Positions 36,916 through 59,730 of a stretch of 64,000 nt of DNA are shown one piece after another; the first letter of the stretch is position 1, and each line of letters starts with the position of its first letter. The stretch is from Clostridia bacterium (GTDB lineage: Bacteria > Bacillota > Clostridia > UMGS1883 > UMGS1540), in NCBI GenBank assembly GCA_045590195.1, contig JAZNQN010000044.1:19186-83185 (forward strand), in the 5' to 3' direction. A program made the position numbers and the translations under genes. Below the pieces are notes generated by a model, which ran no database searches, was not told where the DNA came from, and was given only the letters and a program-made list of their open reading frames with translations.

Positions 36916-36927
36916 ATTGCGCCCTCC

Positions 36928-37602: not shown

Positions 37603-37621
37603 CAGTAGTATCTCCTTTTTC

Positions 37622-40437: not shown

Positions 40438-40859
40438 CTTAAATCCTCCAATCTTTTGTTTTCGCCAAGAGCAGCAACTGCTTCGGCAAATTCATTCATT
40501 GTTTGCGCAAATTTTGCGCCTTCAGCCGCAGAAACCCATTCAACACGGGTTCTTTCTTTTTCAATACCGAGAAAATCGAGCATTGAGAAAAGAAGCGACA
40601 TTCTTCTTCTTGTATAGTAGTTACCAGAAGTATAATGGCAGTCGCCAGGGTGGCAACCACAGATTATAACCCCGTCTGCTCCACGCTGAAATGCTCTTAA
40701 AATAAACATTGGGTTTACCCTACAAGAGCATGGAACACGAATTATTTTAACTTCGGCAGGGTAACTGAGTCGGTTATTACCTGCAAGGTCGGCACCGGCA
40801 TAAGAACACCAGTTACAGCAAAATGCCACTATTAAAGGTTTTTTCTCTTCTATTTGCAT
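40425..40859 (-). CDS. mvhD: MvhD/FlxD-like methyl-viologen-reducing-hydrogenase delta-subunit family protein
   Basis: IVAFCCNWCSYAGADLAG, RVPCSCRV and ICGCHPGDCHY. Confidence 0.85.
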   Translation of the reverse strand: MQIEEKKPLIVAFCCNWCSYAGADLAGNNRLSYPAEVKIIRVPCSCRVNPMFILRAFQRGADGVIICGCHPGDCHYTSGNYYTRRRMSLLFSMLDFLGIEKERTRVEWVSAAEGAKFAQTMNEFAEAVAALGENKRLEDLRCKQ

Positions 40860-42844
40860 ATTGCATCCACCTCCGCTAAAATTTGTGCATTTTTAAAGCC
40901 TTTTAAATCCATTGCACCTGATGGACAGGCAACTGTACAAGCACCGCAGCCCTGACAAACAGCTTCATTAACCTGAGCTACGCGGCGCATTTTTGTTGTT
41001 CTGTTTGGCATACGGAACTCTTTAACTACATAAGTTATTGCACCATATGGGCAAACTCTTTCGCAACTACTGCATCCGTTACACATCATTTCGTCTGATG
41101 CGGCAATACAAGGATTACCAAGAAGTTTATCTTTGCATAAAAGGCCGATAACCTTTGAAGCCGCCGCTCCCGCCTGGGAAACAGTTTCAGGAATATCTTT
41201 CGGGCCTTGACAAGCACCTGACAAAAATACGCCTGCGGTTGGGCTTTCAACCGGACGAAGCTTTGGATGAGCCTCGGTAAAGAAATCGTTTGTATCCATA
41301 CTTGCAGTGAGCATTGTTGCAAGAGGACGAGCTGATTTATCAGGCTCGATTGCGGCTGCTAAAACAACCAAATCTGCATCAATGTTAATCTGTTTATTTG
41401 AAATTAAATCGCTTGCACGCACTTTAAGCTTATCGCCTTCAGGCATAATTTTGCCAACCATACCTTTAATGTAGTGAACACCAAATTCCTCGGTTGCTCT
41501 TCTGTAAAATTCGTCAAAGTTTTTACCGGGAGTTCTGACATCGATGTAGAATACTGTTACGTCAGTATCCGGATATTTATCACGAGTGAGCATTGCGTGT
41601 TTCGCTGTGTACATACAACAAATTTTAGAACAGTATTCCTTACCTTTTTCATTGCATGCATCGCATCTTGAACCTACGCACTGAACGAAAACGATTTTTT
41701 CAGGATGTTTTCCGTCTGAAGGGCGTAAGAGTTTACCTGCTGTTGGGCCTGCCGCATTGGTAAGACGCTCAAATTCGAGAGAAGTTATAACATCTTTCGA
41801 CTGGTTATAAGCATACTCATCAAATTTTTCCATACTGATAGGATTAAAGCCTGTTGCAACAACAATTGCACCATATTTTTCTTCTATAATTTCATCCTGT
41901 TGCTTATAATTGATAGCTCCTGCTGCACAAACCTTTTCACAAAGGCCGCACTTGCCATTTTTAAGCATATTACAGTAATCAGCATCAATTGTTGCAACCT
42001 TTGGAACTGCCTGAGCAAAAGGAATATAAACCGCTCTTCTCATATCCATTCCAAGGTTAAATTCATTAGGAACTTTCTTTTGAGGACATTTTTCTGTACA
42101 AAGGCCGCAACCTGTACATTTAGTTTCGTCAACAAATCTTGCTTTTTTCTTAATTTTTACATCAAAATTTCCTACAAAACCGGAAACTGCTTCAACTTCG
42201 CTATAGGAAAAAATTCTTATTTTATCGTTCTGTGCAACATCAACCATTTTTGGAGTTAAAATACAAGCCGCACAGTCAAGTGTTGGGAAGGTTTTATCAA
42301 TCTGCGCCATCTTGCCGCCGATTGTAGGATTTTTTTCAACTATATCTACCGGGAAACCTGCATCGGCAATATCAAGAGCTGTTTGAATACCTGCAATACC
42401 GCCACCGATAACCAAAGCACGCTTTGTAACAGGGCTTTCGCCAGGTGTAAGCGGAGCGTTAAGGTTAACCTTTGCAACAGCCGCTTTGCCCAAAATAATT
42501 GCTTTTTCAGTTCCTGTAGGGATATCTTTATGAACCCATGAGCACTGCTCACGAATGTTTGCAATTTCAACCATATAAGGGTTAATCCCTGCACTTTCAG
42601 CGGTTTTTCTGAAAGTATTCTCGTGCATACGGGGTGAACAGGAACAAATAACTATACCGGTAAGATTATGCTCTTTAATAGCATCTTTAATCATTTCCTG
42701 TCCCGCTTGGGAACACATATACTGATAGTTAGTGGAGAAAACAACACCAGGCTCTTTTTTCAAGGCTTCGCTAACTGCTTCAACATCAACAGTTGCCGCA
42801 ATATTGCTTCCGCACCAACATACGAATACACCAATTCTTTGCAT
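40850..42844 (-). CDS. hdrA: HdrA-like FAD/FeS heterodisulfide-reductase subunit A (full-length, bifurcation-type architecture)
   Basis: N-terminal Cys-rich domain (VCWCGSN, ICSCSPR). FAD fold ALVIGGGIAGIQTALD. Inserted ferredoxin CTGCGLCTEKCP/CGLCEKVC. VQCVGSR. C-terminal CNGCSSCERVCP and CQGCGACTVACP. Confidence 0.85.
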   Translation of the reverse strand: MQRIGVFVCWCGSNIAATVDVEAVSEALKKEPGVVFSTNYQYMCSQAGQEMIKDAIKEHNLTGIVICSCSPRMHENTFRKTAESAGINPYMVEIANIREQCSWVHKDIPTGTEKAIILGKAAVAKVNLNAPLTPGESPVTKRALVIGGGIAGIQTALDIADAGFPVDIVEKNPTIGGKMAQIDKTFPTLDCAACILTPKMVDVAQNDKIRIFSYSEVEAVSGFVGNFDVKIKKKARFVDETKCTGCGLCTEKCPQKKVPNEFNLGMDMRRAVYIPFAQAVPKVATIDADYCNMLKNGKCGLCEKVCAAGAINYKQQDEIIEEKYGAIVVATGFNPISMEKFDEYAYNQSKDVITSLEFERLTNAAGPTAGKLLRPSDGKHPEKIVFVQCVGSRCDACNEKGKEYCSKICCMYTAKHAMLTRDKYPDTDVTVFYIDVRTPGKNFDEFYRRATEEFGVHYIKGMVGKIMPEGDKLKVRASDLISNKQINIDADLVVLAAAIEPDKSARPLATMLTASMDTNDFFTEAHPKLRPVESPTAGVFLSGACQGPKDIPETVSQAGAAASKVIGLLCKDKLLGNPCIAASDEMMCNGCSSCERVCPYGAITYVVKEFRMPNRTTKMRRVAQVNEAVCQGCGACTVACPSGAMDLKGFKNAQILAEVDAICK

Positions 42845-42858
42845 TTGCTTTCTCCTTT

Positions 42859-43245
42859 CTATTTACTATATTTTCTCATTGCACTTACAATTGCCTGTTG
42901 TGGCAACTGTTCATCTAAAAGTGAAGGTATTGCATCAGCTTTAAGATGATTTTCGCCCTGCTGACGTACTTTTAAAAGCCTTACTGCTTCAATAAGTTTT
43001 GCCGGCTCTACGCCTCTGGGACAACGCTCAACACAGGCAAAACAAGAAAGACATTTGAAAATTGAAGGCGACTCCATAAGTTTATCAACATCACCGTTTT
43101 CAACCATATAAACAAACTGATGAGGATGATATTCCATTTCATCATAAGAAGGACATGTACCTGTGCATTTGCCGCATTTCATACATTTTTTAGGATTAAC
43201 ACCGCTGATGCGCAAAATTTCGTTTGAAAGCTCTGTTTTATTCAT
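42859..43245 (-). CDS. hdrC: HdrC-like 2x[4Fe-4S] subunit
   Basis: CMKCGKCTGTCP and CLSCFACVERCP. ATG 43245 lies 9 nt after AAGGAGG and gives an 8-nt ATGAATAA overlap with hdrB. Confidence 0.8.
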   Translation of the reverse strand: MNKTELSNEILRISGVNPKKCMKCGKCTGTCPSYDEMEYHPHQFVYMVENGDVDKLMESPSIFKCLSCFACVERCPRGVEPAKLIEAVRLLKVRQQGENHLKADAIPSLLDEQLPQQAIVSAMRKYSK

Positions 43246-44032
43246 TTGCACAGCCCTCCTTTACGCCAAGCGCCTGTGCTAAAAGCTCGGTAAAATATTT
43301 AATTTCTATACCGTCGGCGTGTTTTTCAAGATTATATTTGCAAAGTGGGCAAGCTGTTACTATCATATCTGCACCCATTTTTTTGGCACTTTCCAAAATA
43401 GCAATACTCTTCTTCTTTGCACTTTCACTATCTTCAAGAGCTATATATCCGCCGCAGCATTCGTTTCTGTATGGCGAAACTATTGCTTCCGCACCCATAG
43501 CTTTTACAAGATTTTCAAGAATCTGCGGATTTTCGCTGTCGTCCATCTGCATAACTTTACCAGGACGAAGCAAAAGACAACCATAATATGGAGCAATTTT
43601 TTTACCCTCAAGAGGATTTGTAACTTTTTTGGCAATTTCTTCAAAGCCAATTTCATCTCTCAAAAGCTCAAGATAATGAATAACCTCTGCATCTCCCTCA
43701 TAAGGCGTATCAAGATTCATATAGTTATTTGCTTTAAAAGCAAAATCGCTATCGTTATTAAACTGATAATTTGTTTGTTTTATTACATTATGGCAGGCAG
43801 CACAAACTGTTACAAGCTTCTGACCTTTTTCTTTTGCCTCTACAAGGGCACGAATTGAGGAAAGCTTTGTTGCAATTTCATCCTTCGAAGTTGTAAAAAC
43901 TCCGCCGCAGCACTGCCAGTTATTTATTTCTTCCAGATTAACCCCTAATGCCGCCGCACTTTCTCTTGCGTATTTATCAAGTTCTTTTGCTTTGGTTTTA
44001 AGAGTACAACCGGGATAATATGAAAAATTCAT
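43238..44032 (-). CDS. hdrB: HdrB-like subunit with two CCG domains
   Basis: YYPGC...NWQCCGG...CAACHN and YYGC...ECCGGY...CPLCKYN. The start is at ATG 44032 (MNFSYYPGC) after AGGGAG. Confidence 0.85.
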   Translation of the reverse strand: MNFSYYPGCTLKTKAKELDKYARESAAALGVNLEEINNWQCCGGVFTTSKDEIATKLSSIRALVEAKEKGQKLVTVCAACHNVIKQTNYQFNNDSDFAFKANNYMNLDTPYEGDAEVIHYLELLRDEIGFEEIAKKVTNPLEGKKIAPYYGCLLLRPGKVMQMDDSENPQILENLVKAMGAEAIVSPYRNECCGGYIALEDSESAKKKSIAILESAKKMGADMIVTACPLCKYNLEKHADGIEIKYFTELLAQALGVKEGCANE

Positions 44033-44054
44033 ACCTAAACTCCCTTCTGCAAAA

Positions 44055-45431
44055 TTATACCATCTGTTCAGGATGGAACACTTCGTCAAATTTTTCTTCG
44101 GTTAAAAAGCCAAGCTCGATACAAGCCTCTTTAAGAGAAATATTGTCTTTATAAGCTTTTTTAGCTGTTTTAGCCGCATTTTCATAACCGATATAAGGGT
44201 TAAGCGCAGTAACAAGCATAAGTGAATTATGAAGATTATGATGCATTTTTTCGCGGTTTGCCTTAATGCCTACTGCACAGTTTTTGTTAAATGAAACAAT
44301 GGCTTCTGCCATAAGACGTGCCGACTGCAAAAAGTTATATATGCATACAGGCATAAATACATTAAGTTCAAAGTTACCCTGTGAAGCTGCCATAGAAACA
44401 GCAACATCATTACCCATTACCTGAACGGCAACCATTGTTACCGCTTCACACTGAGTTGGGTTAACTTTACCCGGCATAATTGATGAGCCCGGTTCATTTT
44501 CAGGGATGAAAATTTCTCCAAGGCCATCACGAGGACCGCTTGCAAGCCAACGGATATCGTTTGCTATTTTCATCATATCGCAGGCAAGGGCTTTAATTGC
44601 ACCATGTGCAAAAACAAGCTCGTCTTTTGAAGTTAATGCGTGAAATTTATTCTCAGCAGTTACAAATGGTTTTCCTGTTATTTTCGAAACCTCTGCCGCA
44701 ACGCCTTCTGAAAAACCTTTTGGAGCATTAAGTCCTGTTCCAACTGCAGTTCCGCCAAGTGCAAGTTCACAAAGCGGCTTTACGCTTTGCTTCAAAAGCT
44801 CTACATCTTTCTGGAGGCTTGATCTCCAGCCGCTGATTTCCTGGCTGAATTTTATTGGAGTTGCATCCTGAAGATGTGTTCTTCCGCTTTTTACTATATC
44901 TTCGTTTTCTTTTTCAAGGCGTGAAAAAGTATCGATAAGAGTTTGGACAGCAGGAATAAGTTTATCTTCTATCATCAAAACTGCGGAAATATGCATAGCT
45001 GTAGGGAAAGTATCGTTTGACGACTGGCTCATATTAACATCATCATTAGGATGAAGAATACTTTTGCCCGCAATCTGATTTCCACGGTTTGCAATTACTT
45101 CGTTTGCATTCATATTCGACTGAGTGCCGGAGCCCGTTTGCCATACAACAAGAGGAAAATGGCTATTAAGCTTGCCGCTTATAACCTCATCGCAAGCACT
45201 GGAAATTGCCGAAAGTTTTTCTTCAGTCATTTTTTCGGGTTTCAAAGCGTGATTTGCGATTGCTGCAGCTTTTTTCAAAATGCCGAATGCATGTGTAATT
45301 TCACGTGGCATTGTTTCAATATTTACACCGATTTCAAAATTTTCGTGACTTCTCTGGGTTTGAGCCGCCCACAACCTGTCGGCAGGAACTTTAACCTCTC
45401 CCATCGAGTCGTGTTCAATACGATAATCCAT
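44055..45431 (-). CDS. fumC: Class II fumarate hydratase
   Basis: [15 protein letters not shown] signature. N-terminal [21 protein letters not shown] is FumC-like rather than AspA-like. Confidence 0.85.
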
Positions 45432-45449
45432 AACTACTCCTCTTTTCTT

Positions 45450-46406
45450 TTATATATCCATTTGTTTTATAAGTGATTTCAAAGTATCTGCGCTATGGTG
45501 AAGTGCGCGAACCTCTTCATCATTAAGAGGCAAAAGCATTTTTCCACAAGCGCCCTTGTTGTCAACAACATTGAGAAGGCTCAAAGAAACATCATCTATT
45601 CCATATTCGCCGTGAAGCATTGTTGAAACAGTCATAGTAGTATTTATACCGCCGAGAATACATTTACAAATGTGGCAAACAGATACTGAAACAGCGTAGA
45701 ATGTTGCACCTTTTCTTTCAATAACTCTTCCGCCTGATTTGCGAACATAATCCTCAACTTCATCAAAGTCTATACTTGGCAGCTTAAAGCCTTTCTGAGA
45801 AAAATCGCCTACTACCGAAGACTGACCTTCCTGAATAGGAATGTTAGATACATTTGCAATTGACCACGGAACAAAAGAAGAATCACCATGTTCACCAAGA
45901 ACATAGGCGTGAACATTTTTCTGGTTGATTGAGTAATACTCCGAAAGCCTTGCACGAAGGCGGGCGGTATCAAGAATAGTTCCCGAACCTATAATCTGAT
46001 TTTCAGGAAGCCCTGAACATTTAAAGAATGTGTAAGTTAAAATGTCAACAGGATTGCTCACTATAAGGTAAACTGCATTTGGTGCATAGCGAACAATTTC
46101 AGGAATAATCTGTTTAGTAATATTAACATTTGTCTGAGCAAGGTCAAGCCTTGACTGACCTGGCTTTCTTGCAATACCTGAAGTTACTATTACTATATTT
46201 GAGCCTACTGCATCCTGATATGAACCTGCGTAAACTGTTGCTGATGAGCAAAACGGTGTTCCCTGGCGAATGTCAAGTGCTTCGCCAAGTGCTTTTTCCT
46301 GATTAATATCAATAAGCACAATTTCAGATGCCAGCCCCATAACAGTTAAAGTATACGCAATTGTTGAGCCAACACTACCTGTTCCTATTATTGTAATTTT
46401 GTTCAT
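45450..46406 (-). CDS. mdh: LDH-like malate dehydrogenase
   Basis: NKITIIGTGSVGST Rossmann motif and catalytic LGEHGDS. The substrate loop GIARKPGQSRLDL has Arg at the LDH Gln102-equivalent position. Confidence 0.7.
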   Translation of the reverse strand: MNKITIIGTGSVGSTIAYTLTVMGLASEIVLIDINQEKALGEALDIRQGTPFCSSATVYAGSYQDAVGSNIVIVTSGIARKPGQSRLDLAQTNVNITKQIIPEIVRYAPNAVYLIVSNPVDILTYTFFKCSGLPENQIIGSGTILDTARLRARLSEYYSINQKNVHAYVLGEHGDSSFVPWSIANVSNIPIQEGQSSVVGDFSQKGFKLPSIDFDEVEDYVRKSGGRVIERKGATFYAVSVSVCHICKCILGGINTTMTVSTMLHGEYGIDDVSLSLLNVVDNKGACGKMLLPLNDEEVRALHHSADTLKSLIKQMDI

Positions 46407-46447
46407 GGTATTCTTCCTTTCGTGTATGAAATATCGTTACAACCTCA

Positions 46448-46487
46448 ATTGTAGCACACATTTAAATTAAAATCAATAGAAATTGAT
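46448..46487 (-). promoter_or_regulatory. Candidate operon promoter with overlapping 6-4-6 palindrome
   Basis: On the minus strand, TTGATT (46476-46471), a 17-nt spacer and TACAAT (46453-46448). The palindrome ATCAAT-AGAA-ATTGAT at 46472-46487 covers the -35. Confidence 0.45.
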
Positions 46488-46504
46488 AATTTTTTAACAA
46501 TCTT

Positions 46505-46540
46505 TTTTAAAAAGCTAACTCTATATTTAAATATAGAGTT
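46505..46540 (-). terminator. Terminator after the 46547-47980 hydrogenase gene
   Basis: AACTCTATATTT/AAATATAGAGTT palindrome, followed on the minus strand by AGCUUUUU. Confidence 0.7.
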
Positions 46541-46546
46541 TTAGCA

Positions 46547-47980
46547 TTATATTATACTGTTTGCATCACTCACGGCGTTATATATAGTTTTGTCTGCGGC
46601 CTTTTTTCCGAAGTTATCTATCATATTTTTATCGCGCGATGTGTGAGTAAGGCACCCTGCCCCACCAATACAACCACCAACACAAGCCATACCTTCTATA
46701 AAGTTTGCATCGAGCATCCCTTTGCTTTTCTTCAGAAGGTTTATTTTACACTCTTCAATTCCGTCGCACGAAATTGCATTAAGTGTAAAGTCGGTTACTC
46801 CTTTTTCTTTAAGCCCCTGTGCAACTGCATCGGCAAGGCCACCACAACGGGCAAAAATTCTTCCGAAATACGATGCGCCGTCAAGTTCGCTTTCTTCAAG
46901 AGAAGTAATATCTATATCGCGGCTGTCAAAAAGCGCCTGAAGCTCTTCAAAAGTTAAAACAGTATCAACATATTTTGAAACTTCTGCTTTCTGTGCCTCA
47001 GCTTTTTTTGCAGTACATGGACCGATAAAAATAACTTTTGCACTTTCATCGTGTTCTTTAATGTATTTTGCAATAGTTGCCATTGGCGAAAGATTATGTG
47101 AAATATTTTCAGAAAGGTTATCAAAATTTTGCTCAATATATTTTACAAACGCAGGGCAACAAGAGCTTGTTAAAAATCTTTTTTCTGCAAGCTCCTCTGC
47201 TTCGGATGCTGCAACCATATCAGCGCCAAGTGCAGCCTCAACAACATTGAAAAATCCGAGTTCTTTAATACCTGTCACAACCTGACCAAGCCTTGCATAG
47301 TTAAACTGACTTGAAATTGTAGGTGCAACAACGGCATAAATATTATACTTTGTATTATTTTCGCTACCTTTTAAAAGGTCGATTGCATCGAGAATAAATG
47401 ATTTATCTGTAATTGCGCCAAATGGGCACTGATATACACAGGCTCCACACGCAATACATTTATCATCAAGAATTTTTGCCGACATATCTACATTCGTTTC
47501 AATTGCATCCACCTTGCAAGCGCTTTGGCACGGACGACGGTAGTTTGCAATTGCGTTGAACGGACAAACTTTTGCGCAGGCACCACAGTTTTTACACTTG
47601 GTTTTATCAATGTGCGCTTTTGGGTTTTCATCAAAAGTTATGGCACCAAATTTGCAAACATCTTCACATCTGTGTGCCAGGCATCCGCGGCATGAATGAG
47701 TTACCTCGTATCCGCCCATAGGACATTCATCGCAGGCAATACTGATAACTTCAATTACATTTTTATTCCTTTTGTTACCACCCATCGCCATTTTAACTCT
47801 TTTTGCAAGAATGGCTCTTTCTTTATAAACGCAGCAACGCATAGTTGCCTCTTTCCCGGGCACAAGTATTTCCGGGATGTCGGATATATTTTCCATAAGA
47901 GTACCTGCCCAGTACAGACGGGCAACTTCTCTTAATACTTTATATTTCAGGTGTTGAACTTTAGTATCAAACTTTCTCAT
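46547..47980 (-). CDS. [FeFe]-hydrogenase-family protein with N-terminal poly-ferredoxin region (HfsD-like)
   Basis: H-cluster motifs LTSSCCPAF, GPCTAKKAE and EGMACVGGCIGGAGC. Upstream FeS motifs CKNCGACAKVCP and CIACGACVYQCP. Start ATG 47980 (after AAGGTGA) is preferred over GTG 47989. Confidence 0.75.
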   Translation of the reverse strand: MRKFDTKVQHLKYKVLREVARLYWAGTLMENISDIPEILVPGKEATMRCCVYKERAILAKRVKMAMGGNKRNKNVIEVISIACDECPMGGYEVTHSCRGCLAHRCEDVCKFGAITFDENPKAHIDKTKCKNCGACAKVCPFNAIANYRRPCQSACKVDAIETNVDMSAKILDDKCIACGACVYQCPFGAITDKSFILDAIDLLKGSENNTKYNIYAVVAPTISSQFNYARLGQVVTGIKELGFFNVVEAALGADMVAASEAEELAEKRFLTSSCCPAFVKYIEQNFDNLSENISHNLSPMATIAKYIKEHDESAKVIFIGPCTAKKAEAQKAEVSKYVDTVLTFEELQALFDSRDIDITSLEESELDGASYFGRIFARCGGLADAVAQGLKEKGVTDFTLNAISCDGIEECKINLLKKSKGMLDANFIEGMACVGGCIGGAGCLTHTSRDKNMIDNFGKKAADKTIYNAVSDANSII

Positions 47981-47990
47981 AATATTCACC

Positions 47991-49163
47991 TTAAAAATAA
48001 CTTACTTTAATTCTTTTACCCATTTTTTCAAGATGTTTGGATAACTCTTCTACCATATTCATTTTGATATTAAAATTTATGGGCAAATCAGGATTTTGAT
48101 GAGCAGGATTTACAGCTCTTCCAACATAAAAGTTAATATCGGTTGCTTCTTCAAACAAAAGTTGAGAAATTAACGACGCAGCATCTTTACCCATTTCCCA
48201 GTCATTATAAAGGCGGTTTTCATTAACAAAGTCCTCGGCATATTTAAGCACATGGCTCATTGTAATTACACCTTCAGTTACCAGGTCAACGCCATCAATT
48301 ATCGCTACTGGCGGAATTCCTTGTTTTTCAAACTTCAAAGTTGGTTTTACTTCCTTGCCAAGGTATTCGGCTGCAATTGAAGATGTTGTACCGCCGCAAA
48401 CAATGTGTTTACCCTCTTTTGCAAAGAAAAGTGCCATCATTTTTCTGCAATCATCTCTGTTTGATGGTGGACCAAAAACAAGGTTTATAGGCGCTCTTTT
48501 TCTTATTCTTACAACGCAGGCACTGGTATCATCGCCCGGTTCTCCGCCATAAAGTTTATTACATTCATCAGTTAAAATGGTTGCCAGGGTTTTTGCGTTA
48601 TATCCGGCACATTCAATAGTTTCCATAAACTCAGTTATCTGCTCAGTTTTCCAACCGAAATTATAAATATTTCCAATTCCTGCATGAGGACAACCATCGC
48701 TCATTGCAAGAAATAAATCGTTTTCGCAAAGCTTTATTCTCGAACGAAGCATCTTTTTATCGCCAATTGAAAATGTTTCCTGGTTATATTCAAAGTTCTT
48801 TCCGTCGCGAAGCAAAATTACAGGCGGATTATCATATTGAATAATTTCTGCAAACTCATTATTAACAATATGAATAATTGTAAATGTTGAATATGCCACT
48901 CCCCTTTGCGAACAAACGGGAAGTGTTGCTGCAATAGTTGAAACGCAGTCTTCAATTGACAGCCCTGCTGCCAGAAGAGTTGAAATTATTTTAGAAGTAA
49001 GTGTTGACAAAATGCCAGCTTTAACACCACTTCCAAGCCCATCGGCAAGAACAATTACAGATGAATTTTCGCCTGAGCTTACAACATCTATATGATCGCC
49101 GCAAAGCTCCTCACCGTGGTGGTTTAATGAGCGATATCCAATATCAGCACACAAATCATTCAT
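47991..49163 (-). CDS. SpoIIE/PP2C-type serine phosphatase with ~170-aa C-terminal domain (HfsC-like)
   Basis: GEELCGDHIDVV, VLADGLGSGVKAGILS and LAMSDGCPHAG. 8-nt ATGAATGA overlap with hydS. Confidence 0.75.
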   Translation of the reverse strand: MNDLCADIGYRSLNHHGEELCGDHIDVVSSGENSSVIVLADGLGSGVKAGILSTLTSKIISTLLAAGLSIEDCVSTIAATLPVCSQRGVAYSTFTIIHIVNNEFAEIIQYDNPPVILLRDGKNFEYNQETFSIGDKKMLRSRIKLCENDLFLAMSDGCPHAGIGNIYNFGWKTEQITEFMETIECAGYNAKTLATILTDECNKLYGGEPGDDTSACVVRIRKRAPINLVFGPPSNRDDCRKMMALFFAKEGKHIVCGGTTSSIAAEYLGKEVKPTLKFEKQGIPPVAIIDGVDLVTEGVITMSHVLKYAEDFVNENRLYNDWEMGKDAASLISQLLFEEATDINFYVGRAVNPAHQNPDLPINFNIKMNMVEELSKHLEKMGKRIKVSYF

Positions 49164-50838
49164 CAGCTATTGTCTCCTTAAGTTTTGTAAGCGCAATTTT
49201 TGTTTCAGCAGCTGTTTCGCCAAGTAACGATGCAATTTCCTGAACAATGCGCATTTGCTTTTCAACAACTTTATCTGCTACTTCGATGGTTTCTGTCCCA
49301 ATTCTCTCTTTACGCTCTTTCTCTCTTTCCTCGGCAGTTACATCACGCAAAATGCAAATTATAATTCTATACTCTTTATCCGGAATAATTGTTTTTTCAA
49401 CATATTTGTCGTATTCTGCAAGATATTTTCTTCTGTTAGAAATCCTTCTTCCGCTTTCCATTGCATTTATAAACGGAGTAGGGTCTAAAATTCTTACAAC
49501 AGGCTCACCCATTACATCGGAAACAGATTTTACGTTCAAAATTTTTCTTGCGGAGTTGTTGATAAGCTGAACTTCAAGTTGTTCGTTTACAACAATAATT
49601 CCGTTAGGTGTGTTGTTAACTATTGTATCTGAGAAAACTTCAGCTTTATCTTTTAAAAACGGCAAACACATTGAAAGGTCGGCCTTTCCGTGGTATATTG
49701 CAATTGCTTTTTCACGGCAGGTATCATATCCACAGGAGCCACAGTTAAGCTCGTCTTCAGGACGAACTTTTCCCATTGTTTTCAGTACTTTGACTATTTC
49801 TTCATCGGCAGGTGGCTGAAGTCGTCTTTCAATAGGCTCAATGCCTTTTTGAAGTTCAGTAAAATCAGGCTGTGAAATTTCAAAGTCTTTTTCGCCTGCA
49901 TAATCAGAAACAGCTTTAAATTCACTCACAGGAGCTGAATTGAATTTTTCCATTATCGGACCGCAAATACAGCTTCCGCTGCAGGCCGACATTTCAATAA
50001 AGCATCCGTGTACTTTTCCGCTTTCAATATCACGAAGCGCTTCAATACAGTTATTAGTGCCATCAATGGCCATATATGTATATTCAGGAAGTCGCTCGTC
50101 CATTGTTTTTAATATACCTCCCGTTGTCGGGAAAAGCCTTGCACGGCTTTTTTCGGTAACATCTAGCTCTTTTTCAATCTCTATATTTTCTTCTTTGAAC
50201 CAGTTTGTAAGTTCATCGAAGGTTAAAACTGCGTCTACAATATCTCCGTAGTAATCACCCTCATCTTTTTTGGAAAGGCAGGGGCCGATAAATACTGTTT
50301 TCGCACCTGGATATTTCTTTTTAATTTCTATGGAATGAGCCTGCATAGGCGACATTGTGTTTGAAAGGTAAGGCAAAACAGAAGGAAAATACTTCTGAAC
50401 AAGCAAATTAACACTGTGGCAACAGGAAGAAATAAGAATATCAGGCTTTTCTTCACGAAGTTTGCGCTGGTATTCGTTTTTTACAATTGTTGCACCAATA
50501 GCAGTTTCTTCAGCATCGAAAAAGCCAAGTTTTAATAAAGCCTTTTTCATTGCCTCTATTCCGACACCATCATAATTTGCAATAAAAGACGGAGCAAGAG
50601 AAGCAACAACCTGTTCACCATTTGCAATCATTACTCTTACTTTTTCGCGCTGGTCTGTAATTTCTTTAGCATTTTGCGGACAAACAACAAAGCATTGACC
50701 GCATAAAATACACTCATTGCCAATAATATGTGCCTGATTACCTGAGAAACGAATGGCTTTTACGGGACAATGTCTAATACATTTATAACAGTTTTTACAG
50801 TTTGATTTTTTAAGTTTAAGCCATTCCACTATGCTCAC
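49156..50838 (-). CDS. hydS: Putative sensory [FeFe]-hydrogenase (HydS/HfsB-like): 2x[4Fe-4S], variant H-domain, extra Cys4 motif, PAS domain
   Basis: CKNCYKCIRHCP and CILCGQCFVVCP. Variant H-cluster motifs ISSCCHSV, GPCLSKKDE and EMSACSGSCICGP. CGSCGYDTC...C. PAS-like SDTIVNNTPNGIIVVNEQLEVQLINNSARKIL. Confidence 0.75.
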   Translation of the reverse strand: MSIVEWLKLKKSNCKNCYKCIRHCPVKAIRFSGNQAHIIGNECILCGQCFVVCPQNAKEITDQREKVRVMIANGEQVVASLAPSFIANYDGVGIEAMKKALLKLGFFDAEETAIGATIVKNEYQRKLREEKPDILISSCCHSVNLLVQKYFPSVLPYLSNTMSPMQAHSIEIKKKYPGAKTVFIGPCLSKKDEGDYYGDIVDAVLTFDELTNWFKEENIEIEKELDVTEKSRARLFPTTGGILKTMDERLPEYTYMAIDGTNNCIEALRDIESGKVHGCFIEMSACSGSCICGPIMEKFNSAPVSEFKAVSDYAGEKDFEISQPDFTELQKGIEPIERRLQPPADEEIVKVLKTMGKVRPEDELNCGSCGYDTCREKAIAIYHGKADLSMCLPFLKDKAEVFSDTIVNNTPNGIIVVNEQLEVQLINNSARKILNVKSVSDVMGEPVVRILDPTPFINAMESGRRISNRRKYLAEYDKYVEKTIIPDKEYRIIICILRDVTAEEREKERKERIGTETIEVADKVVEKQMRIVQEIASLLGETAAETKIALTKLKETIADE

Positions 50839-51095
50839 TCCCCTATATTTAATACTTTAAGTATATGTTCCTTAAAAAAGTCATCGAACTTATGTATTGT
50901 AAGTCCTACAAAAACTTCATCGTTTATCTGAACGGTTACGCCTTCGCGATTGCATTTTCCAATGCAAAAGCTTCCGGCAACAGAAACTTTGTCGCCAATA
51001 TTATAATCACTTACTGCTTTTTCAAAAGCATTTGCTATTTCATATGAACCTTTAATATGACAGGAACTGCCAATACAAACTAATACTTTAAGCAA
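50835..51095 (-). CDS. Thioredoxin-like [2Fe-2S] ferredoxin (86 aa, HfsA-like position)
   Basis: C7-x4-C12...C44-x3-C48 pattern (VCIGSSCH...SFCIGKC). TTG start and a 4-nt GTGA overlap with hydS. Confidence 0.65.
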   Translation of the reverse strand: MLKVLVCIGSSCHIKGSYEIANAFEKAVSDYNIGDKVSVAGSFCIGKCNREGVTVQINDEVFVGLTIHKFDDFFKEHILKVLNIGE

Positions 51096-51120
51096 AAATA
51101 AATCATTCCTTTTTGATTTT

Positions 51121-51152
51121 TTAAAAGGCCGCAGTGCGGTTGCACCGCGGCC
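51121..51152 (-). terminator. GC-rich terminator separating the two small ferredoxin genes
   Basis: GGCCGC-A-GTGC GGTT GCAC-C-GCGGCC, followed on the minus strand by CUUUUAA. Confidence 0.65.
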
Positions 51153-51160
51153 ATATGTTA

Positions 51161-51409
51161 TTATTTTACAAGAGGAAGTATATTATCTTTGAAAAACGCT
51201 CTTGCCTCTTTTTCGGTAATTCGGAATGTTTTGTCATCTACTTTTACAGAAACGCCAACATTTGTACAATTTTTCATACAAAATGACGCCGCAAGTTCAA
51301 TTTTATCATGAAGATTATTATCTTCAATCATATGCTGAAATGATGACACAACATTATGTGCTCCGTTTAAATGACACGCGCTTCCAATGCATACACTAAT
51401 TTTTATCAT
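51161..51409 (-). CDS. Thioredoxin-like [2Fe-2S] ferredoxin (82 aa), last gene of the nfn-hyd operon
   Basis: VCIGSACH...SFCMKNC. It is a paralog of the 86-aa protein and starts 2 nt after the hydA stop. Confidence 0.7.
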   Translation of the reverse strand: MIKISVCIGSACHLNGAHNVVSSFQHMIEDNNLHDKIELAASFCMKNCTNVGVSVKVDDKTFRITEKEARAFFKDNILPLVK

Positions 51410-51411
51410 TA

Positions 51412-53109
51412 TTATTCCTCCGATTTTTTCGCATAGTTCACATGTAAAAGTTTATGAACTTTACCTTTAATAATATTGTTATAAAGTGACGAAACAATTG
51501 GGTTTTCTTCTGAACGACGTATGCTTAAGAGTCTGTCAGATTTATAAAGTCCGCTCTTTCTGGCAGCAATCTCGTGCTGCATTGCAAATGGCTGACCGCC
51601 ACCATTTATACATCCGCCAGGGCAAGCCATAACTTCAATAAAGTCAATCTGTTCGCCGTCTTTTACGCGCTGAAGAACTTTTTCAGCATTTGCAAGACCG
51701 CTTACAACTACAATATGAAGTTCTCTTTCTCCATACATAAGTTTAAATTCTTTAATGCCATCAAGGCCACGCTGACCGCAATCTGCAATAGAAAGAAGTC
51801 CGCTTCTTGATTTATTTGCAGCAACACGGCGAAGTACAGCTTCTGTAACACCACCTGTTACACCAAATATTACACCTGCACCTGAAATAGTACCAAATGG
51901 CATATCGACAGCTTCAGGCTCTAAGGTATCAAACATAATACCTGCTTCTTTAACCATTGAAACAAGTTCCTGAGTTGTAATAACTGCATCAACATTAGGC
52001 TGACCGTCCATTTTGAACTCATCTCTTGCAGCTTCAAACTTTTTAGCTGTACAAGGCATTACTGCAACATGGAACATTTTTCTTGAAGCTTCTTTTGCCT
52101 GGTCTTTCAAAATTGAAGCCATCATCTGCATTGGGCTGCGGCAAGTTGATACATTAGGAAGAAATTCAGGGAATTTCTTTTCGCAGAACTGAATCCAGCC
52201 AGGGCAGCATGAAGTAATAAGTGGAAGATTTTCGCCTTTTTCAAGTTTAGTAAGAAATTCTTCACTTTCTTCCAAAACAGTTAAATCTGCTCCGAGAGAA
52301 GTATCATAAATTTCATCAAATCCCATACGATGAAGAGCGGCAACAATTTTACCCATTACATCTTCCCCGTCGCGAACACCAAGTTCTTTACCAAGTGCAA
52401 CTCTTACCGCAGGAGCAACCTGAACAGTTGTTTTAACTTCAGGGTCGCTTATTGCTTTCCAAACGGGAGCAATATTATTTTTAACAACAAGAGCACCTGT
52501 TGGACATACTGCAACACACTGACCACAGCCAACACATGGGCTTTCTGAAAGTGGTTTATTAAACGCAGTGCTGATTGTCATATTAGAGCCACGGTATGCA
52601 AAGTCGATAGCGCCAACATTCTGAACCTCGTTACACATTCTCACACAGTCGCCGCAAAGAATACATTTGCCTGTATCTCTTGTAATGCATACGGAAGACG
52701 TATCTTCATCTTTTGTTGAAACTGCAGTATTAGGGAAACGAACGCCTTCAATATTAAAGCGCATTGCCAAATCCTGCAATTTACATTTTGCGTTGTTCTC
52801 ACAGGTTGTACAGTCGCGGCAATGGTTAGCAAGAAGAAGTTCGAGAATATTTTTTCTGTATCTTCTAAGGCGCTCTGTATTTGTTTTTATGTTCATACCT
52901 GCACGAGGAGGTGTTGAACAAGCGGCATCAAGTCCGCCTCTTTCGTTTTCTACCATACACATACGGCATGCACCGTAAACCGAAAGCTCGGAATGATAGC
53001 AGAATGTAGGCATTTTTACGCCTGTTTTATTTATAAGTTCAAGAAGATTTTTCTCTCCGTTAATTTCAACGGGGATACCGTCGATTGTCAAATACTGTTT
53101 CTCAGTCAT
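51412..53109 (-). CDS. hydA: [FeFe]-hydrogenase catalytic subunit HydA (bifurcating-type, set 1)
   Basis: N-terminal 2Fe-2S (FCYHSELSVYGACRMCMVE). FeS motifs CILCGDCVRMC and CVGCGQCVAVCP. Canonical H-cluster motifs TSCCPGW, MPCTAKKFEA and EVMACPGGCINGGGQP. Confidence 0.9.
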   Translation of the reverse strand: MTEKQYLTIDGIPVEINGEKNLLELINKTGVKMPTFCYHSELSVYGACRMCMVENERGGLDAACSTPPRAGMNIKTNTERLRRYRKNILELLLANHCRDCTTCENNAKCKLQDLAMRFNIEGVRFPNTAVSTKDEDTSSVCITRDTGKCILCGDCVRMCNEVQNVGAIDFAYRGSNMTISTAFNKPLSESPCVGCGQCVAVCPTGALVVKNNIAPVWKAISDPEVKTTVQVAPAVRVALGKELGVRDGEDVMGKIVAALHRMGFDEIYDTSLGADLTVLEESEEFLTKLEKGENLPLITSCCPGWIQFCEKKFPEFLPNVSTCRSPMQMMASILKDQAKEASRKMFHVAVMPCTAKKFEAARDEFKMDGQPNVDAVITTQELVSMVKEAGIMFDTLEPEAVDMPFGTISGAGVIFGVTGGVTEAVLRRVAANKSRSGLLSIADCGQRGLDGIKEFKLMYGERELHIVVVSGLANAEKVLQRVKDGEQIDFIEVMACPGGCINGGGQPFAMQHEIAARKSGLYKSDRLLSIRRSEENPIVSSLYNNIIKGKVHKLLHVNYAKKSEE

Positions 53110-53113
53110 TTTC

Positions 53114-54988
53114 TCAAACCTCCTTTATAGCCTTGAATGCACAAGCATCAATACAGCTACCGCAACGAATACATTTTGAAAGGTTAATTGTAAATGGTTC
53201 CTTAATTTTTCCTTCGATAGCTTCAACAGGACACTGACGGGCACATTTTGAGCAACCTTTACAAAGCTCAGGGTCAATAACAATTGTTTTAAGTTTCTGA
53301 CATTCACCCGCTGGACAACGCTTGTCGTAAATATGAGCTTCATATTCATCACGGAAGTTTTTAATTGTACTTACTACCGGAGAAGGAGCACTTTTGCCAA
53401 GTCCGCAAAGAGCTGTAGCCGAAATTGTATCAGCAAGCTCGAGAAGGAGTTCAATATCTCCATCCTGACCTTCGCCTGCGACAATTCTTTCAAGAATCTG
53501 AAGCATTCTCTTTGTACCTTCACGGCAAGGAACGCATTTACCACAGCTTTCGTTCTGTGTAAAGTTCATAAAGAATCTTGCAACCTCTACCATACAGGTA
53601 TTTGAGTCCATAACAACAAGTCCGCCGGAGCCTATCATAGCTCCAACCTTTTTAAGTGTATCAAAGTCAAGAGGAAGGTCTAAATGTTCTTTTGTAAGAC
53701 AAGCACCTGAAGGGCCGCCTATCTGTACGGCTTTAAATTCGCCGTCGCCTTTCATACCGCCACCGATATCAAAAATAATCTCGCGGAGAGTTGTTCCCAT
53801 AGGAACTTCGATAAGGCCTGTATTTGCAATGTTACCTGTAAGAGCAAAAGCTTTTGTGCCTGCACTTCCCTCTGTTCCGATACCGAGATACCAGTCTGCG
53901 CCACGGTTTATAATTTCAGCAACGTTTGCATATGTTTCAACATTATTAAGTACTGTTGGTTTATCAAAAAGACCATGTTCAACAGTTCTTGGAGGTTTAA
54001 CTCTCGGGAAACCACGTTTACCTTCGATTGAAGCAGTAAGCGCACTACCTTCGCCACAAACAAACGCACCTGCACCACGGCTGATGTGCATTTTAAACGA
54101 AAAGCCTGTTCCGAGAATATTTTCGCCAAGAAGGCCTAGTTCTTCTGCCTGAGTTATTGCATTTTTAAGTCTGTCAACAGCGAGAGGATATTCAGCACGA
54201 ACATATATGTAACCTTCACATGCGCCACAGGCAACACCTGCAATCATCATACCCTCAAGCATTCTGTGAGGGTCACCTTCCATAATACTTCTGTCCATAA
54301 ATGCACCGGGGTCACCCTCGTCACCATTACAAACAACATATTTAATAGGCTCTTTCTGGCGTTTAACCTGTTCCCATTTTCTTCCGGCAGGAAATCCGCC
54401 GCCCCCACGTCCGCGAAGGTTTGATTTACTGATTTCAGATACAATGTCATCAGCAGTCATATCAAAAAGTGCTTTTTCAAAAGCGGAATAACCACCAATG
54501 GCAATATATTCACGAATTGATTCGGCATCAATTTTACCGCAGTGTTCCAAAACGATACGGGTTTGCTGTTTATAAAAAGGAATTTCATCCTGTTTTTTGT
54601 ATGAAACGCCATCTTTTTTGCAGGCAAGGCGGTCAATGGGTTCTCCTTTAAGAACTGTTTTTTCAATAATTTCTTCACAGTCTTCAACTTTTACTTTTGT
54701 GTAAAGCCAACCCTGTGGGTCGATTCTGAGAAGTGGGCCCATTTCACAAAAACCATGGCAACCGCTCTTTTTAAGGCCTATGCTTTCATCGTGGGGATCA
54801 ACTTCAAGCTCCACTGCAACTTTAATGCCTCTTTCATCACAAAGTTCTTTAAGTCTGTCATAAATTTTAAGTGAGCCACCGGCAACGCAACCTGTTCCGG
54901 CACAAACAATGATTTTTTCGGTTTGTAGTTCATAAGACTTTTTCACTTCTTCACGAAGCTTCATAAAATCTTCTCTGTTTTTAAGCAT
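53114..54988 (-). CDS. hydB: HydB, NuoF-like FMN/NAD(P)H subunit (set 1)
   Basis: GRGGGGFPAGRKWE, CNGDEGDPGAFMDR, ESCGKCVPCREG, an N-terminal thioredoxin-like 2Fe-2S domain and a C-terminal 2x[4Fe-4S]. Confidence 0.9.
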   Translation of the reverse strand: MLKNREDFMKLREEVKKSYELQTEKIIVCAGTGCVAGGSLKIYDRLKELCDERGIKVAVELEVDPHDESIGLKKSGCHGFCEMGPLLRIDPQGWLYTKVKVEDCEEIIEKTVLKGEPIDRLACKKDGVSYKKQDEIPFYKQQTRIVLEHCGKIDAESIREYIAIGGYSAFEKALFDMTADDIVSEISKSNLRGRGGGGFPAGRKWEQVKRQKEPIKYVVCNGDEGDPGAFMDRSIMEGDPHRMLEGMMIAGVACGACEGYIYVRAEYPLAVDRLKNAITQAEELGLLGENILGTGFSFKMHISRGAGAFVCGEGSALTASIEGKRGFPRVKPPRTVEHGLFDKPTVLNNVETYANVAEIINRGADWYLGIGTEGSAGTKAFALTGNIANTGLIEVPMGTTLREIIFDIGGGMKGDGEFKAVQIGGPSGACLTKEHLDLPLDFDTLKKVGAMIGSGGLVVMDSNTCMVEVARFFMNFTQNESCGKCVPCREGTKRMLQILERIVAGEGQDGDIELLLELADTISATALCGLGKSAPSPVVSTIKNFRDEYEAHIYDKRCPAGECQKLKTIVIDPELCKGCSKCARQCPVEAIEGKIKEPFTINLSKCIRCGSCIDACAFKAIKEV

Positions 54989-55466
54989 TGTTTATCTCCT
55001 CTCTGAGTTTTTTCAAAAGCTCTGATGCTTTATCCGGTGTCATTGCAGAATATACAACATCGTTTACTGTAAGTACCGGAGCAAGACCACAAGCGCCGAG
55101 ACATGATACTGTTTCAAGTGTAAAGTTTAAGTCGTCGGTAGTTTTTTTGCTTTCGCTAAGTCCAAGTTCACTGCGAAGACGCTCCAAAATCGGAATGGAA
55201 CGGCGAACATGACAAGCTGTTCCGTCGCATATTTTTATTACATATTTTCCCTTTGGTTCAAGAGAAAAGTTTTCGTAAAATGTTGCTACGCTGAAAATCC
55301 TAACTTCAGGAATGTTAAGCTGTTTTGCAAGATGTGGAAAAATATCTTTTGGCAAGTAATGATATTCTTCCTGAATTTCCTGCAAAATTGCGATAATTGC
55401 CTGTGGATTTTTGTCGTATTTATCGACTATTTTATCTACGATTGCAAAATCAAACTGTTCACTCAT
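54981..55466 (-). CDS. hydC: HydC, NuoE-like 2Fe-2S subunit (set 1)
   Basis: CDGTACHVRR...CLGACGLAP. 8-nt overlap with hydB. Confidence 0.9.
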   Translation of the reverse strand: MSEQFDFAIVDKIVDKYDKNPQAIIAILQEIQEEYHYLPKDIFPHLAKQLNIPEVRIFSVATFYENFSLEPKGKYVIKICDGTACHVRRSIPILERLRSELGLSESKKTTDDLNFTLETVSCLGACGLAPVLTVNDVVYSAMTPDKASELLKKLREEINNA

Positions 55467-55488
55467 AGTTTTACTCCTTTGTTTTTAA

Positions 55489-56898: not shown

Positions 56899-56923
56899 TT
56901 TAAATTCCTCCTTCTAAATCAGT

Positions 56924-57772: not shown

Positions 57773-57927
57773 AAAAATTCACCTCTCTATATTTTAAATA
57801 ATTGTTATATTACATACATAACTTTACATAATATATAATAACACAATTACACTTTTTTGCATATTATAAAATTTGCATATCCGTTATATACTTATAGGCA
57901 TATGGTTATTTCGTTTTTACATAACAA

Positions 57928-57958
57928 CAGCGCGATACATTTATTATGTACCGCGCTG
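57928..57958 (-). terminator. Terminator after hydA (set 2)
   Basis: CAGCGCG-x-TACAT TTATT ATGTA-x-CGCGCTG, followed on the minus strand by a U-rich tract. Confidence 0.6.
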
Positions 57959-57974
57959 CTTAAAATTATTTAAA

Positions 57975-59711: not shown

Positions 59712-59730
59712 AATTATCTGCTCCCCTCTC

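Follow-up and report, generated by a model that had tools for sequence, protein, structure and literature searches.

Organisation of the hfs-like locus

The window analysed here, a 64,000-nt stretch of contig JAZNQN010000044.1 from a Clostridia bacterium (assembly GCA_045590195.1), carries on its minus strand, at positions 46547–51095, four genes which a first-pass annotation had described as an hfs-like, HydS-type sensory hydrogenase module. The four open reading frames (ORFs) are intact and show the domains assigned to them when compared with Pfam and NCBIfam profiles, and the description can now be stated more precisely as orthology to the HydS / SpoIIE phosphatase / HydA2 cluster of Ruminococcus albus 7. 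The module and the small ferredoxin gene preceding it are organised as follows:

51161..51409, minus strand: 82-aa thioredoxin-like [2Fe-2S] protein (weak PF01257 match), starting 2 nt after the hydA stop codon
50835..51095, minus strand: hfsA, 86-aa thioredoxin-like [2Fe-2S] ferredoxin with a TTG start (86-aa product also on the NCBI record)
49156..50829, minus strand: hfsB / HydS, putative sensory group C [FeFe]-hydrogenase, 557 aa from GTG 50829
47991..49163, minus strand: hfsC, SpoIIE/PP2C phosphatase, 390 aa
46547..47980, minus strand: hfsD / HydA2, predicted group B ferredoxin-dependent [FeFe]-hydrogenase, 477 aa from ATG 47980

A tblastn search of a plasmid collection returned as best match the R. 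albus 7 plasmid pRUMAL01, where the locus RUMAL_RS17345–17385 reads LysR-Rex-AdhE-phosphotransferase-Fdx-Fdx-HydS-SpoIIE phosphatase-HydA2, as taken from the plasmid record, in which HydA2 is annotated as a 478-aa '4Fe-4S dicluster' protein. Identity with the window proteins is 64% for HydS, 70% for the phosphatase and 69% for HydA2. In the literature, the hfsABCD operon of Thermoanaerobacterium is described as encoding a small protein, a PAS-hydrogenase, a Ser phosphatase and a ferredoxin-linked hydrogenase like HydA2, and HydS is equated with HfsB and HydA2 with HfsD. On these similarities the window module is an orthologue of the R. albus cluster, corresponding to Thermoanaerobacterium hfsABCD. 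HfsB and HfsC have at least 8000 database matches each and relatives in at least 579 species-level genomes. The window module, with a co-oriented SpoIIE/PP2C gene directly adjoining hfsB, an HfsD-type gene after it and a small [2Fe-2S] protein gene before, is thus a member of a named and widespread family.

For comparison, 80 loci were sampled from the species-level GTDB matches, and their ORFs were called, clustered and matched to the window proteins. This contig scan gave no relative above 76% identity and the window species is absent from the loci; the closest relatives, with HfsB 86% (L083, GCA_045656005.1) and 80% (L084) identical, were reached through protein look-ups.

The mechanically called ORFs of hfsB (49156–50838, 560 aa) and hfsD (46547–47989) are both longer than the likely genes. 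A GGGGAG ribosome-binding site is found 8 nt before the GTG at 50829 and the hfsB product on the NCBI record (a 206,844-bp contig) measures 557 aa, so that GTG 50829 is most likely the start of hfsB, leaving a 5-nt gap between hfsA and hfsB. The hfsD ATG at 47980 lies 10 nt past the hfsC stop codon. On the contrary, hfsB and hfsC share an 8-nt overlap (ATGAATGA), kept in 68 of 77 related loci, and this conservation suggests that HfsB and HfsC form a stoichiometric complex. Therefore, of the 4-nt and 8-nt overlaps originally proposed for the three junctions, only the one between hfsB and hfsC was retained.

When compared with L083, all five genes show a ratio of nonsynonymous to synonymous substitution rates (dN/dS) of 0.06–0.18, with dS near saturation and the ratios thus approximate; on these values they are all under strong purifying selection.

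HfsB has the architecture of a sensory hydrogenase

The following parts were recognised in hfsB:

50668..50811, minus strand: N-terminal 2x[4Fe-4S] domain, CxxCxxCxxxCP twice, with Fer4 family matches (residues 10–57)
49957..50613, minus strand: H-cluster domain, PF02906 (Fe_hyd_lg_C), E about 1e-48 to 7.7e-48
49660..49749, minus strand: C-terminal four-Cys motif CGSCGYDTC...C (PF04060, 2.5e-10), a predicted accessory [4Fe-4S] site adjoining the PAS domain
49333..49629, minus strand: PAS domain, PF00989 and PF13426 (residues 404–502)
49159..49308, minus strand: C-terminal segment of about 50 residues, without any match in Pfam and with the conserved end ...IVQEIASLLGETAAETKIALTKLKETI.DE

The protein therefore combines two N-terminal [4Fe-4S] sites, an H-domain with four Cys, an extra four-Cys motif and a PAS domain, as expected for a sensor. 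All eight N-terminal Cys, as well as C366, C369, C374 and C391 of the accessory site, are invariant in 22 homologues. A role for the accessory cluster in group C and D sensors is among the points discussed in PMC13104023. The H-cluster motifs are SSCCH (L1), GPC (L2) and EMSACSGSC (L3; full motif EMSACSGSCICGP). Using CpI numbering, obtained through an HMMER alignment to PDB 1c4a and a four-way alignment with group A enzymes, the four H-cluster Cys and the equivalents of C299 and S319 are kept, with M353 replaced by Gly and M497 by Ser. The significance of such second-sphere positions in sensory [FeFe]-hydrogenases has been described (PMC10055695), and the sensor-type states, i.e. a small residue at M353 and a residue other than Met at M497, occur in HfsB and likewise in 73–81 of 81 homologues from the 80 loci.

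Each motif quoted by the first-pass annotation was found, that is SSCCH, GPC, EMSACSGSCICGP and CGSCGYDTC in HfsB, together with GPC and MACVGGCIGGAGC in HfsD. Their interpretation as variants of the canonical H-cluster motifs had to be abandoned, since their frequency among homologues marks them as family signatures. Indeed, SSCCH or TSCCH is present in 75/81 HfsB homologues, GPC in all the listed variants and CGSCGY(N/D)(T/S)C in 76, and EMSAC.GSC..GP is the dominant form of L3.

The C-terminal end of HfsB is a candidate contact surface for the phosphatase: from Q528 to E560, 28 of 33 positions are invariant in 22 sequences having 69–87% overall identity.

HfsC is predicted to be an active phosphatase with an additional domain

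Two domains were delimited in hfsC:

48498..49163, minus strand: PP2C/SpoIIE domain, residues 1–222 (PF07228, 6.9e-14, residues 34–220)
47994..48497, minus strand: C-terminal domain, residues 223–390, with the motifs FGPP, VCGGTT, GVDLVTEGV and NPAHQNP

Sequence matches of HfsC in the PDB are to SpoIIE-type serine phosphatases. HfsC has all four metal-binding motifs of the PP2C family (GD23, D41G, SD156G and GD211D212), with the Asp residues invariant in 32 homologues, and should therefore be an active enzyme. The homologues are uniform, being 390 aa long and 73–88% identical over the full length.

No Pfam or NCBIfam family matches residues 223–390, a region conserved as strongly as the catalytic domain. 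The AlphaFold models were confident, with a predicted local distance difference test (pLDDT) value of 78.4 for the whole protein, and of 86.3, with a predicted template modelling score (pTM) of 0.84, for the C-terminal domain alone, which adopts a Rossmann-like alpha/beta fold with generic fold matches. The domain may plausibly bind a ligand or serve in docking. An exhaustive HMMER search with this domain retrieved 1017 representatives at E<=1e-3. Stand-alone copies were considered and discarded: the short matches are mostly fragments (e.g. 'phosphatase, partial'), and the two stand-alone cases on long contigs are split genes still lying between HydS-PP2C and HfsD, so that they offered no separate hint at the function. 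The domain thus appears to be a dedicated, unannotated part of the HfsC family. In one metagenomic contig (L088, 5334–6498), the PP2C domain (216 aa) and the Rossmann-like domain (165 aa) are found as separate genes, 16 nt apart, inside an hfs operon with a hydC-hydB-hydA operon after it; the split is either natural or an assembly frameshift.

We also considered whether hfsC belongs to a partner-switching module, in which an RsbU/SpoIIE-type PP2C acts with a STAS antagonist and a GHKL anti-sigma kinase. This possibility was rejected, because neither in the window nor in any of the 80 loci does a STAS or GHKL gene adjoin hfsC (the scan did not extend to small ORFs elsewhere in the window), the kinase recurrently found in these loci is APH/RIO-like and not GHKL, and the HfsC C-terminal domain is Rossmann-like and not STAS.

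HfsD is a standard group B hydrogenase

HfsD scored 555.2 bits (cut-off 450) over residues 7–449 with TIGR04105, 'monomeric [FeFe] hydrogenase B1'. Its motifs are TSSCCP (L1), GPC (L2) and MACVGGCIGGAGC (L3), and compared with CpI it keeps C299, E279, E282, S319 and M497, with R286 changed to Lys and M353 to Gly. The possibility of a degenerate hydrogenase was rejected, as these motifs are typical of the family (TSSCCP in 53/55 and FIGPCTAKK in 50/55 orthologues, with ...GGCIGGAGC as the usual L3) and the proton pathway is intact. The TSCCCP form of L1, with an extra Cys, described for CpIII (PMC12138974) is not present in HfsD; how general it is across group B was not checked. By its sequence, HfsD is a standard group B catalytic, H2-evolving enzyme, and by homology to HydA2 it is predicted to be a ferredoxin-linked H2 producer. 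No solved structure of any group B or group C enzyme was found in the PDB.

Small ferredoxin genes, flanking hairpins and transcription

HfsA matches PF01257 with 28.7 bits (cut-off 24.8), has Cys at positions 7, 12, 44 and 48, and is most similar to R. albus Fdx2 (41% identity), whereas the best match of the 82-aa protein is R. albus Fdx1 (43% identity). In most of the 80 loci an HfsA homologue is directly preceded by a homologue of the 82-aa protein, with hydABC not nearby; the coupling of the latter gene with hydA was also found in L083 and L084. These comparisons identify the 82-aa gene as orthologous to the first member of the small ferredoxin pair with which the module normally opens, taken over by the hydCBA operon in the clade of the window, and indicate that the evolutionary unit is of five genes, or six with the kinase.

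Two hairpins flank the four hfs genes:

51123..51152, minus strand: upstream hairpin, GC-rich, 11 bp, loop AACC, stem at 51127–51152 with UUUU after it, in the gap separating the 82-aa gene from hfsA
46509..46545, minus strand: downstream hairpin, AU-rich, at 46514–46545 followed by UUUUU, directly 3' of the hfsD stop codon

Both are real when folding is compared with that of shuffled sequences. The 70-nt stretch with the upstream hairpin (51096–51165) has a folding energy of -26.8 kcal/mol (z = -5.4), reached by none of 200 shuffles, and the 61-nt stretch with the downstream one (46490–46550) of -12.6 kcal/mol (z = -3.5), reached by one of 200. The downstream hairpin is likely an intrinsic terminator, and the upstream one likely a terminator or an attenuator. 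In the window, L083 and L084 a hairpin occurs at the same place between the 82-aa gene and hfsA with unrelated stem sequences, which argues for a conserved terminator or attenuator. No RNA family was found by Rfam in the region 46300–51500 at E<=1, so that a riboswitch or a known leader at the upstream hairpin is unsupported.

The first-pass annotation had placed the four genes in a separate transcription unit between two terminators. The hairpins it relied on were confirmed, but the separate unit was not, as the upstream hairpin is too close to hfsA to leave space for a promoter: only about 25 nt separate the U-run from the hfsA ribosome-binding site, and the sole promoter-like match upstream of hfsA falls inside the 82-aa gene. 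On this basis we infer that hfsABCD is probably transcribed by read-through.

Gene neighbourhood across relatives

The core module was present in all 80 sampled genomes, with HfsD following HfsC in 53 of 57 loci and two tandem small ferredoxin genes before HfsB in most of them. Directly upstream and on the same strand, 51 of the 61 loci with enough flank encode a 249-aa protein having an APH/RIO-type kinase fold (PF01636, 3.4e-15) and the catalytic HGDxxxxN motif. Further upstream, AdhE was found in 33 loci, Rex in 25 and a LysR regulator in 38.

None of these partners accompanies the module in the window. A tblastn search of the window that used the R. albus phosphotransferase (kinase) WP_013483408.1 and three other kinases, taken from related loci, gave nothing better than E = 0.2. 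The earlier claim that the window contains no kinase or transcription factor is thus correct as far as the partner-type kinase, Rex, LysR and AdhE are concerned, but not literally, as a pair of a different type lies about 40 kb from hfs:

5724–7139: HisKA/HATPase kinase
7140–7838: OmpR-type regulator

Kinase, Rex, LysR and AdhE are likewise absent beside the module in L083, L084 and L086. The layout of L083 and L084 is that of the window (nfnAB, hydC, hydB, hydA, 82-aa ferredoxin, hfsA-D) and, on its longer contig, L083 continues with mdh, fumC and genes for a CCG protein, a Fer4 protein and HdrA-like and FlpD-like proteins. Among relatives with 75–76% identity, L085 has the R. albus layout (LysR, AdhE, kinase, Fdx, Fdx, HydS, PP, HydA2), whereas L086/L087 are kinase-less, with mdh 24 nt after hfsD and then fumC and Hdr-like genes. 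The M. pectinilyticus locus has no adjacent kinase either. By synteny, in the clade of the window a bifurcating-hydrogenase operon occupies the place of the kinase. The departures from the known layout are, as judged from gene content, the lack of a neighbouring kinase and the presence of fumarate-reduction genes in place of the alcohol dehydrogenase.

The upstream region (51412–62121, minus strand) contains two complete tandem hydC-hydB-hydA operons of the bifurcating NuoE/NuoF/HydA type, their HydA copies being only 45% identical, with an nfnA/nfnB-like pair between them (55489–57772). Separately, four loci (L001, L002, L060 and L073, two of them among the closest GTDB relatives, at 75–76%) have HfsB-HfsC without HfsD within 3–10 kb downstream; gene content thus suggests that the sensor-phosphatase pair can exist without an adjacent group B hydrogenase.

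Electron-sink genes associated with the module

Two features lie downstream of hfsD:

45450..46406, minus strand: dehydrogenase of the lactate/malate dehydrogenase (LDH/MDH) family, first gene of the mdh-fumC-Hdr/Tfr cluster, with Arg at the Q102/R102 position (GIARKPGQSRLDL)
46483..46500: palindrome TTGTTAAAAAATTATCAA, one mismatch from the clostridial Rex-box consensus TTGTTAAnnnnTTAACAA, abutting the promoter-like site of mdh-fumC

The classical Q102R rule reads Arg at the specificity position as the mark of a malate dehydrogenase, and the 45450–46406 protein is therefore probably a malate dehydrogenase; in NCBIfam it scores just above the L-LDH cut-offs. Arg at this position (GxxR(K/Q)PG) is common to the LDH-family proteins of L021, L022, L029, L035, L068 and L086/L087 and to that of the window.

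The mdh-fumC-Hdr/Tfr genes follow hfsD in the window, L083 and L086/L087, and L022 has the order hfsD-mdh-fumC. In other loci the mdh-type gene is embedded in the operon, either between hfsC and hfsD (L021, 12849–13796; L035, 3080–4024; L068, 12847–13794) or before hfsB (L029, 4896–5888); L068 carries adhE as well as mdh, with Rex-AdhE-kinase upstream. Altogether, sink genes beside or inside the operon are adhE in 33 loci and mdh in 5 of the 80 GTDB loci as well as in L083, L086/L087 and the window. The module hence travels with alternative-sink genes, and this gives comparative, not experimental, support to the H2-versus-fumarate idea put forward in the first-pass annotation.

A promoter-like sequence, TTGATT-17-TACAAT, is located at 46476–46448, before the mdh-fumC operon. 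The second-best Rex-box match after the palindrome, with two mismatches, is at 62167–62184 in the promoter region of the second hydC(BA) operon. The two matches in the window compare with 1.36 expected, i.e. chance level, and no rex gene was found in the window; these Rex-box-like sites can be taken as a lead only.

The co-oriented cluster downstream of hfs is long (33988–46406, minus strand). Besides the mdh-type gene and fumC, it encodes a CCG protein (HdrB/TfrB/SdhE-like), a small Fer4 protein, an HdrA-like flavoprotein (NF040770, 789 bits, below cut-off), an FlpD/MvhD-like protein, FeS proteins, an NAD(P)H module similar to AsrA/AsrB or to sulfhydrogenase beta/gamma, an AspT/YidE-type transporter and, at 35308–36915, a TfrA-like fumarate reductase flavoprotein. 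From this gene content it appears to be a soluble Hdr-type fumarate reductase, possibly electron-bifurcating, with the Hdr/Tfr-like complex encoded at 35308–44089. No account of a bacterial complex of this kind came up in one literature search.

Proposed mechanism and alternative explanations

Gut and rumen Clostridia commonly have group C 'sensory' [FeFe]-hydrogenases, which are thought to route fermentation electrons to H2 or to reduced organic products; we know of no signalling step demonstrated for them. The interpretation we favour, with a probability of roughly 0.6, is that the module is regulatory, HfsB acting as H2 sensor, HfsC as phosphatase and HfsD as H2-evolving enzyme. HfsD, as a group B enzyme, would evolve H2 from reduced ferredoxin. 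HfsB would be a low-turnover sensor whose H-cluster reacts with H2, and the redox change would pass to the accessory C-terminal [4Fe-4S] cluster and the PAS domain. The signal would then reach the co-translated HfsC, probably via the near-invariant C-terminal helix of HfsB, and HfsC would dephosphorylate a Ser/Thr phosphoprotein; in most relatives, this target would be phosphorylated by the 249-aa APH-like kinase encoded upstream. The output would act on HfsD and on the alternative-sink genes, setting how ferredoxin-derived reductant is split between H2, via HfsD, and an organic electron sink. In R. albus-type loci the sink would be AdhE, hence ethanol, and in the clade of the window the malate-fumarate-succinate branch. 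The HfsB-HfsC contact, the nature of the target and the control of the fumarate genes by the module are presumptive parts of this scheme.

Published physiology is available for two systems of the family. In R. albus, the hydA2 transcript is 90-fold lower when a partner organism removes H2. In Thermoanaerobacterium, strains lacking hfsA or hfsB produce ethanol in higher yield and show increased adhE expression and hydrogenase activity, the high-ethanol phenotype is lost once hfsC or hfsD is also removed, and hfsD alone reproduces the phenotype.

Several observations weigh against our interpretation. Unlike TmHydS, the sensory hydrogenase of Thermotoga maritima, HfsB still has the Cys of the proton relay (C299 equivalent) as well as S319, so that its turnover could exceed that of a pure sensor. 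The 64-kb window has no homologue of the partner-type kinase, Rex, LysR or AdhE. The putative link of hfs to the fumarate genes is one of synteny only, and in the window the interval from hfsD to mdh holds a hairpin resembling a terminator as well as a separate promoter-like site. As to the published work, hfsD overexpressed without hfsC is active, indicating that HfsD as such can work in the absence of the phosphatase, and the role of HydS/HfsB is termed 'putative', with no experiment showing binding or control of the phosphatase, nor the substrate of the latter.

A different explanation is that HfsB senses the intracellular redox state and not H2, through reduced ferredoxin or NAD(P)H relayed by the small ferredoxins and the FeS chain, with the HfsC Rossmann-like domain as a metabolite input. 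It would account for the one or two small [2Fe-2S] genes always preceding HfsB, for the N-terminal 2x[4Fe-4S] wire, for the frequent presence of Rex and NAD(H)-linked enzymes as neighbours and for the nucleotide-binding-like fold of the HfsC C-terminal domain, although the fold matches of this domain are generic. The identical phenotypes of hfsA and hfsB deletions would also fit, but the hfsA deletion is polar on hfsB. Moreover, the complete set of H-cluster ligands is conserved, which a pure redox sensor would not need, and hydA2 expression follows the removal of external H2. We consider this explanation unlikely.

Distinctly unlikely, in our opinion, is that HfsA, HfsB and HfsD constitute a single multisubunit catalytic 'Hfs hydrogenase' tuned by HfsC through dephosphorylation of a subunit. 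The original description of hfs was indeed that of the main H2-evolving hydrogenase, a 2026 paper suggests that HfsABC might still work as a hydrogenase when HfsD is missing, the equivalents of C299 and S319 are retained in HfsB, and the gene order is tight and conserved. Nevertheless, deletion of hfsB raises hydrogenase activity and hfsD is sufficient for the phenotype, HydA2 of R. albus is regarded as a ferredoxin-dependent enzyme acting by itself, HfsB-HfsC occur without HfsD in the four loci mentioned above, and M497S, M353G and a PAS domain are characteristic of sensors with low activity (PMC10055695).

Finally, that the module is a regulatory relic in the clade of the window, with the kinase gone, HfsB and HfsC silent and only HfsD of importance, would agree with the lack of kinase, Rex, LysR and AdhE in the 64 kb and beside the module in L083, L084 and L086, but is very improbable, given that hfsB and hfsC are intact with all catalytic and cluster residues kept, that the strong purifying selection on all five genes (dN/dS 0.057 for hfsB and 0.078 for hfsC) argues against it, and that the Thermoanaerobacterium module is functional as a four-gene operon and the M. 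pectinilyticus locus too lacks an adjacent kinase.

Within the H2-sensing interpretation, a more speculative proposal, which we hold to be rather doubtful, is that in the gut Clostridia clade of the window the sensor/phosphatase pair has been freed from the kinase-AdhE-Rex context and rewired to balance the bifurcating hydrogenase hydCBA, with which the first small ferredoxin is now shared, against the soluble Hdr-like and possibly bifurcating fumarate reductase, the HfsC Rossmann-like domain providing a metabolite input that replaces or supplements the kinase.

The locus adds no new principle, and a kinase-less variant tied to hydCBA and a fumarate pathway will not surprise the specialist. 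What emerges is a conserved unit made of kinase, two small ferredoxins, HydS, a PP2C phosphatase with a Rossmann-like domain and a group B hydrogenase, which travels with the alternative electron sink of the organism, be it adhE, mdh or mdh-fumC-frd, and of which kinase-less natural variants exist that are still under strong selection. Taken together, these three aspects narrow the search for the phosphatase substrate. They also suggest that succinate formation, besides that of ethanol, may be under H2 control in some gut bacteria.

Other features of the window

Further observations concern regions distant from the hfs module. A 586-aa protein with SLH and serpin domains (PF00079, 1.2e-83) is encoded within 2444–7838, adjoining an HtrA-like protease and the histidine kinase / OmpR regulator pair; cell-wall-anchored bacterial serpins are uncommon. 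A phage-type integrase (462–1889) lies beside a tRNA gene (2082–2155), which may be the boundary of an integrated element. At 22133–22328 there is a gene for 6S RNA (55.8 bits). On the plus strand, 9294–10196 encodes a second, weakly PP2C-like protein of 300 aa (PF13672, E = 4.6e-06), positionally unrelated to the hfs module.

Comparison with known systems

The closest known system is that of R. albus 7, which shares with the window the order and orientation of genes from the two small [2Fe-2S] proteins to HydA2 and the start-stop overlap between hydS and the phosphatase gene. Phosphotransferase (kinase), AdhE, Rex and LysR, present in R. albus, are all missing from the window; instead, nfnAB-hydCBA with the first small ferredoxin gene lie upstream, a conserved hairpin precedes hfsA, and the mdh-fumC-Hdr/Tfr genes follow downstream.

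The hfsABCD operons of T. saccharolyticum and T. thermosaccharolyticum resemble the window in being four-gene units with no kinase in the operon, and there genetics assign a regulatory role to HfsB and a catalytic one to HfsD; the likeness is by description and not by comparison of sequences. Thermoanaerobacterium HfsA is said to align poorly with known proteins, whereas that of the window is a clear thioredoxin-like [2Fe-2S] protein. Moreover, Thermoanaerobacterium is a thermophile and its linked sink is ethanol (adhE/adhA), not fumarate.

TmHydS has in common with HfsB the N-terminal FeS clusters, the H-domain, the extra C-terminal [4Fe-4S] site and the PAS domain, as well as Gly at the M353 and Ser at the M497 equivalents (PMC10055695). 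At the C299 position, on the contrary, TmHydS has Ala and HfsB has Cys, as in only about 17% of sensory sequences (PMC10055695). In HydDB, [FeFe] group C3 comprises the 'phosphatase-linked (putative)' sensors and group B is a separate class. Phosphatase linkage, the C3 feature, is found in the window, and this together with orthology to R. albus HydS would place HfsB in subgroup C3.

HfsD resembles CpIII of Clostridium pasteurianum and the 'colonic-type' group B enzymes of Bacteroides in scoring above the TIGR04105 cut-off, and CpIII also in having Gly at the M353 position, but differs from CpIII in having TSSCCP and not TSCCCP and in being part of a sensor-phosphatase operon.

A functional parallel is offered by HoxBC-HoxJ-HoxA of Ralstonia eutropha ([NiFe] group 2b), where a low-activity hydrogenase likewise serves as H2 receptor and controls a phosphorylation-dependent output over hydrogenase expression. 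The [NiFe] family is unrelated, and the output runs through a histidine kinase and a response regulator in place of a PP2C phosphatase and an APH-like kinase; unlike that of the HydS/PP2C module, the mechanism of HoxBC-HoxJ-HoxA has been solved.

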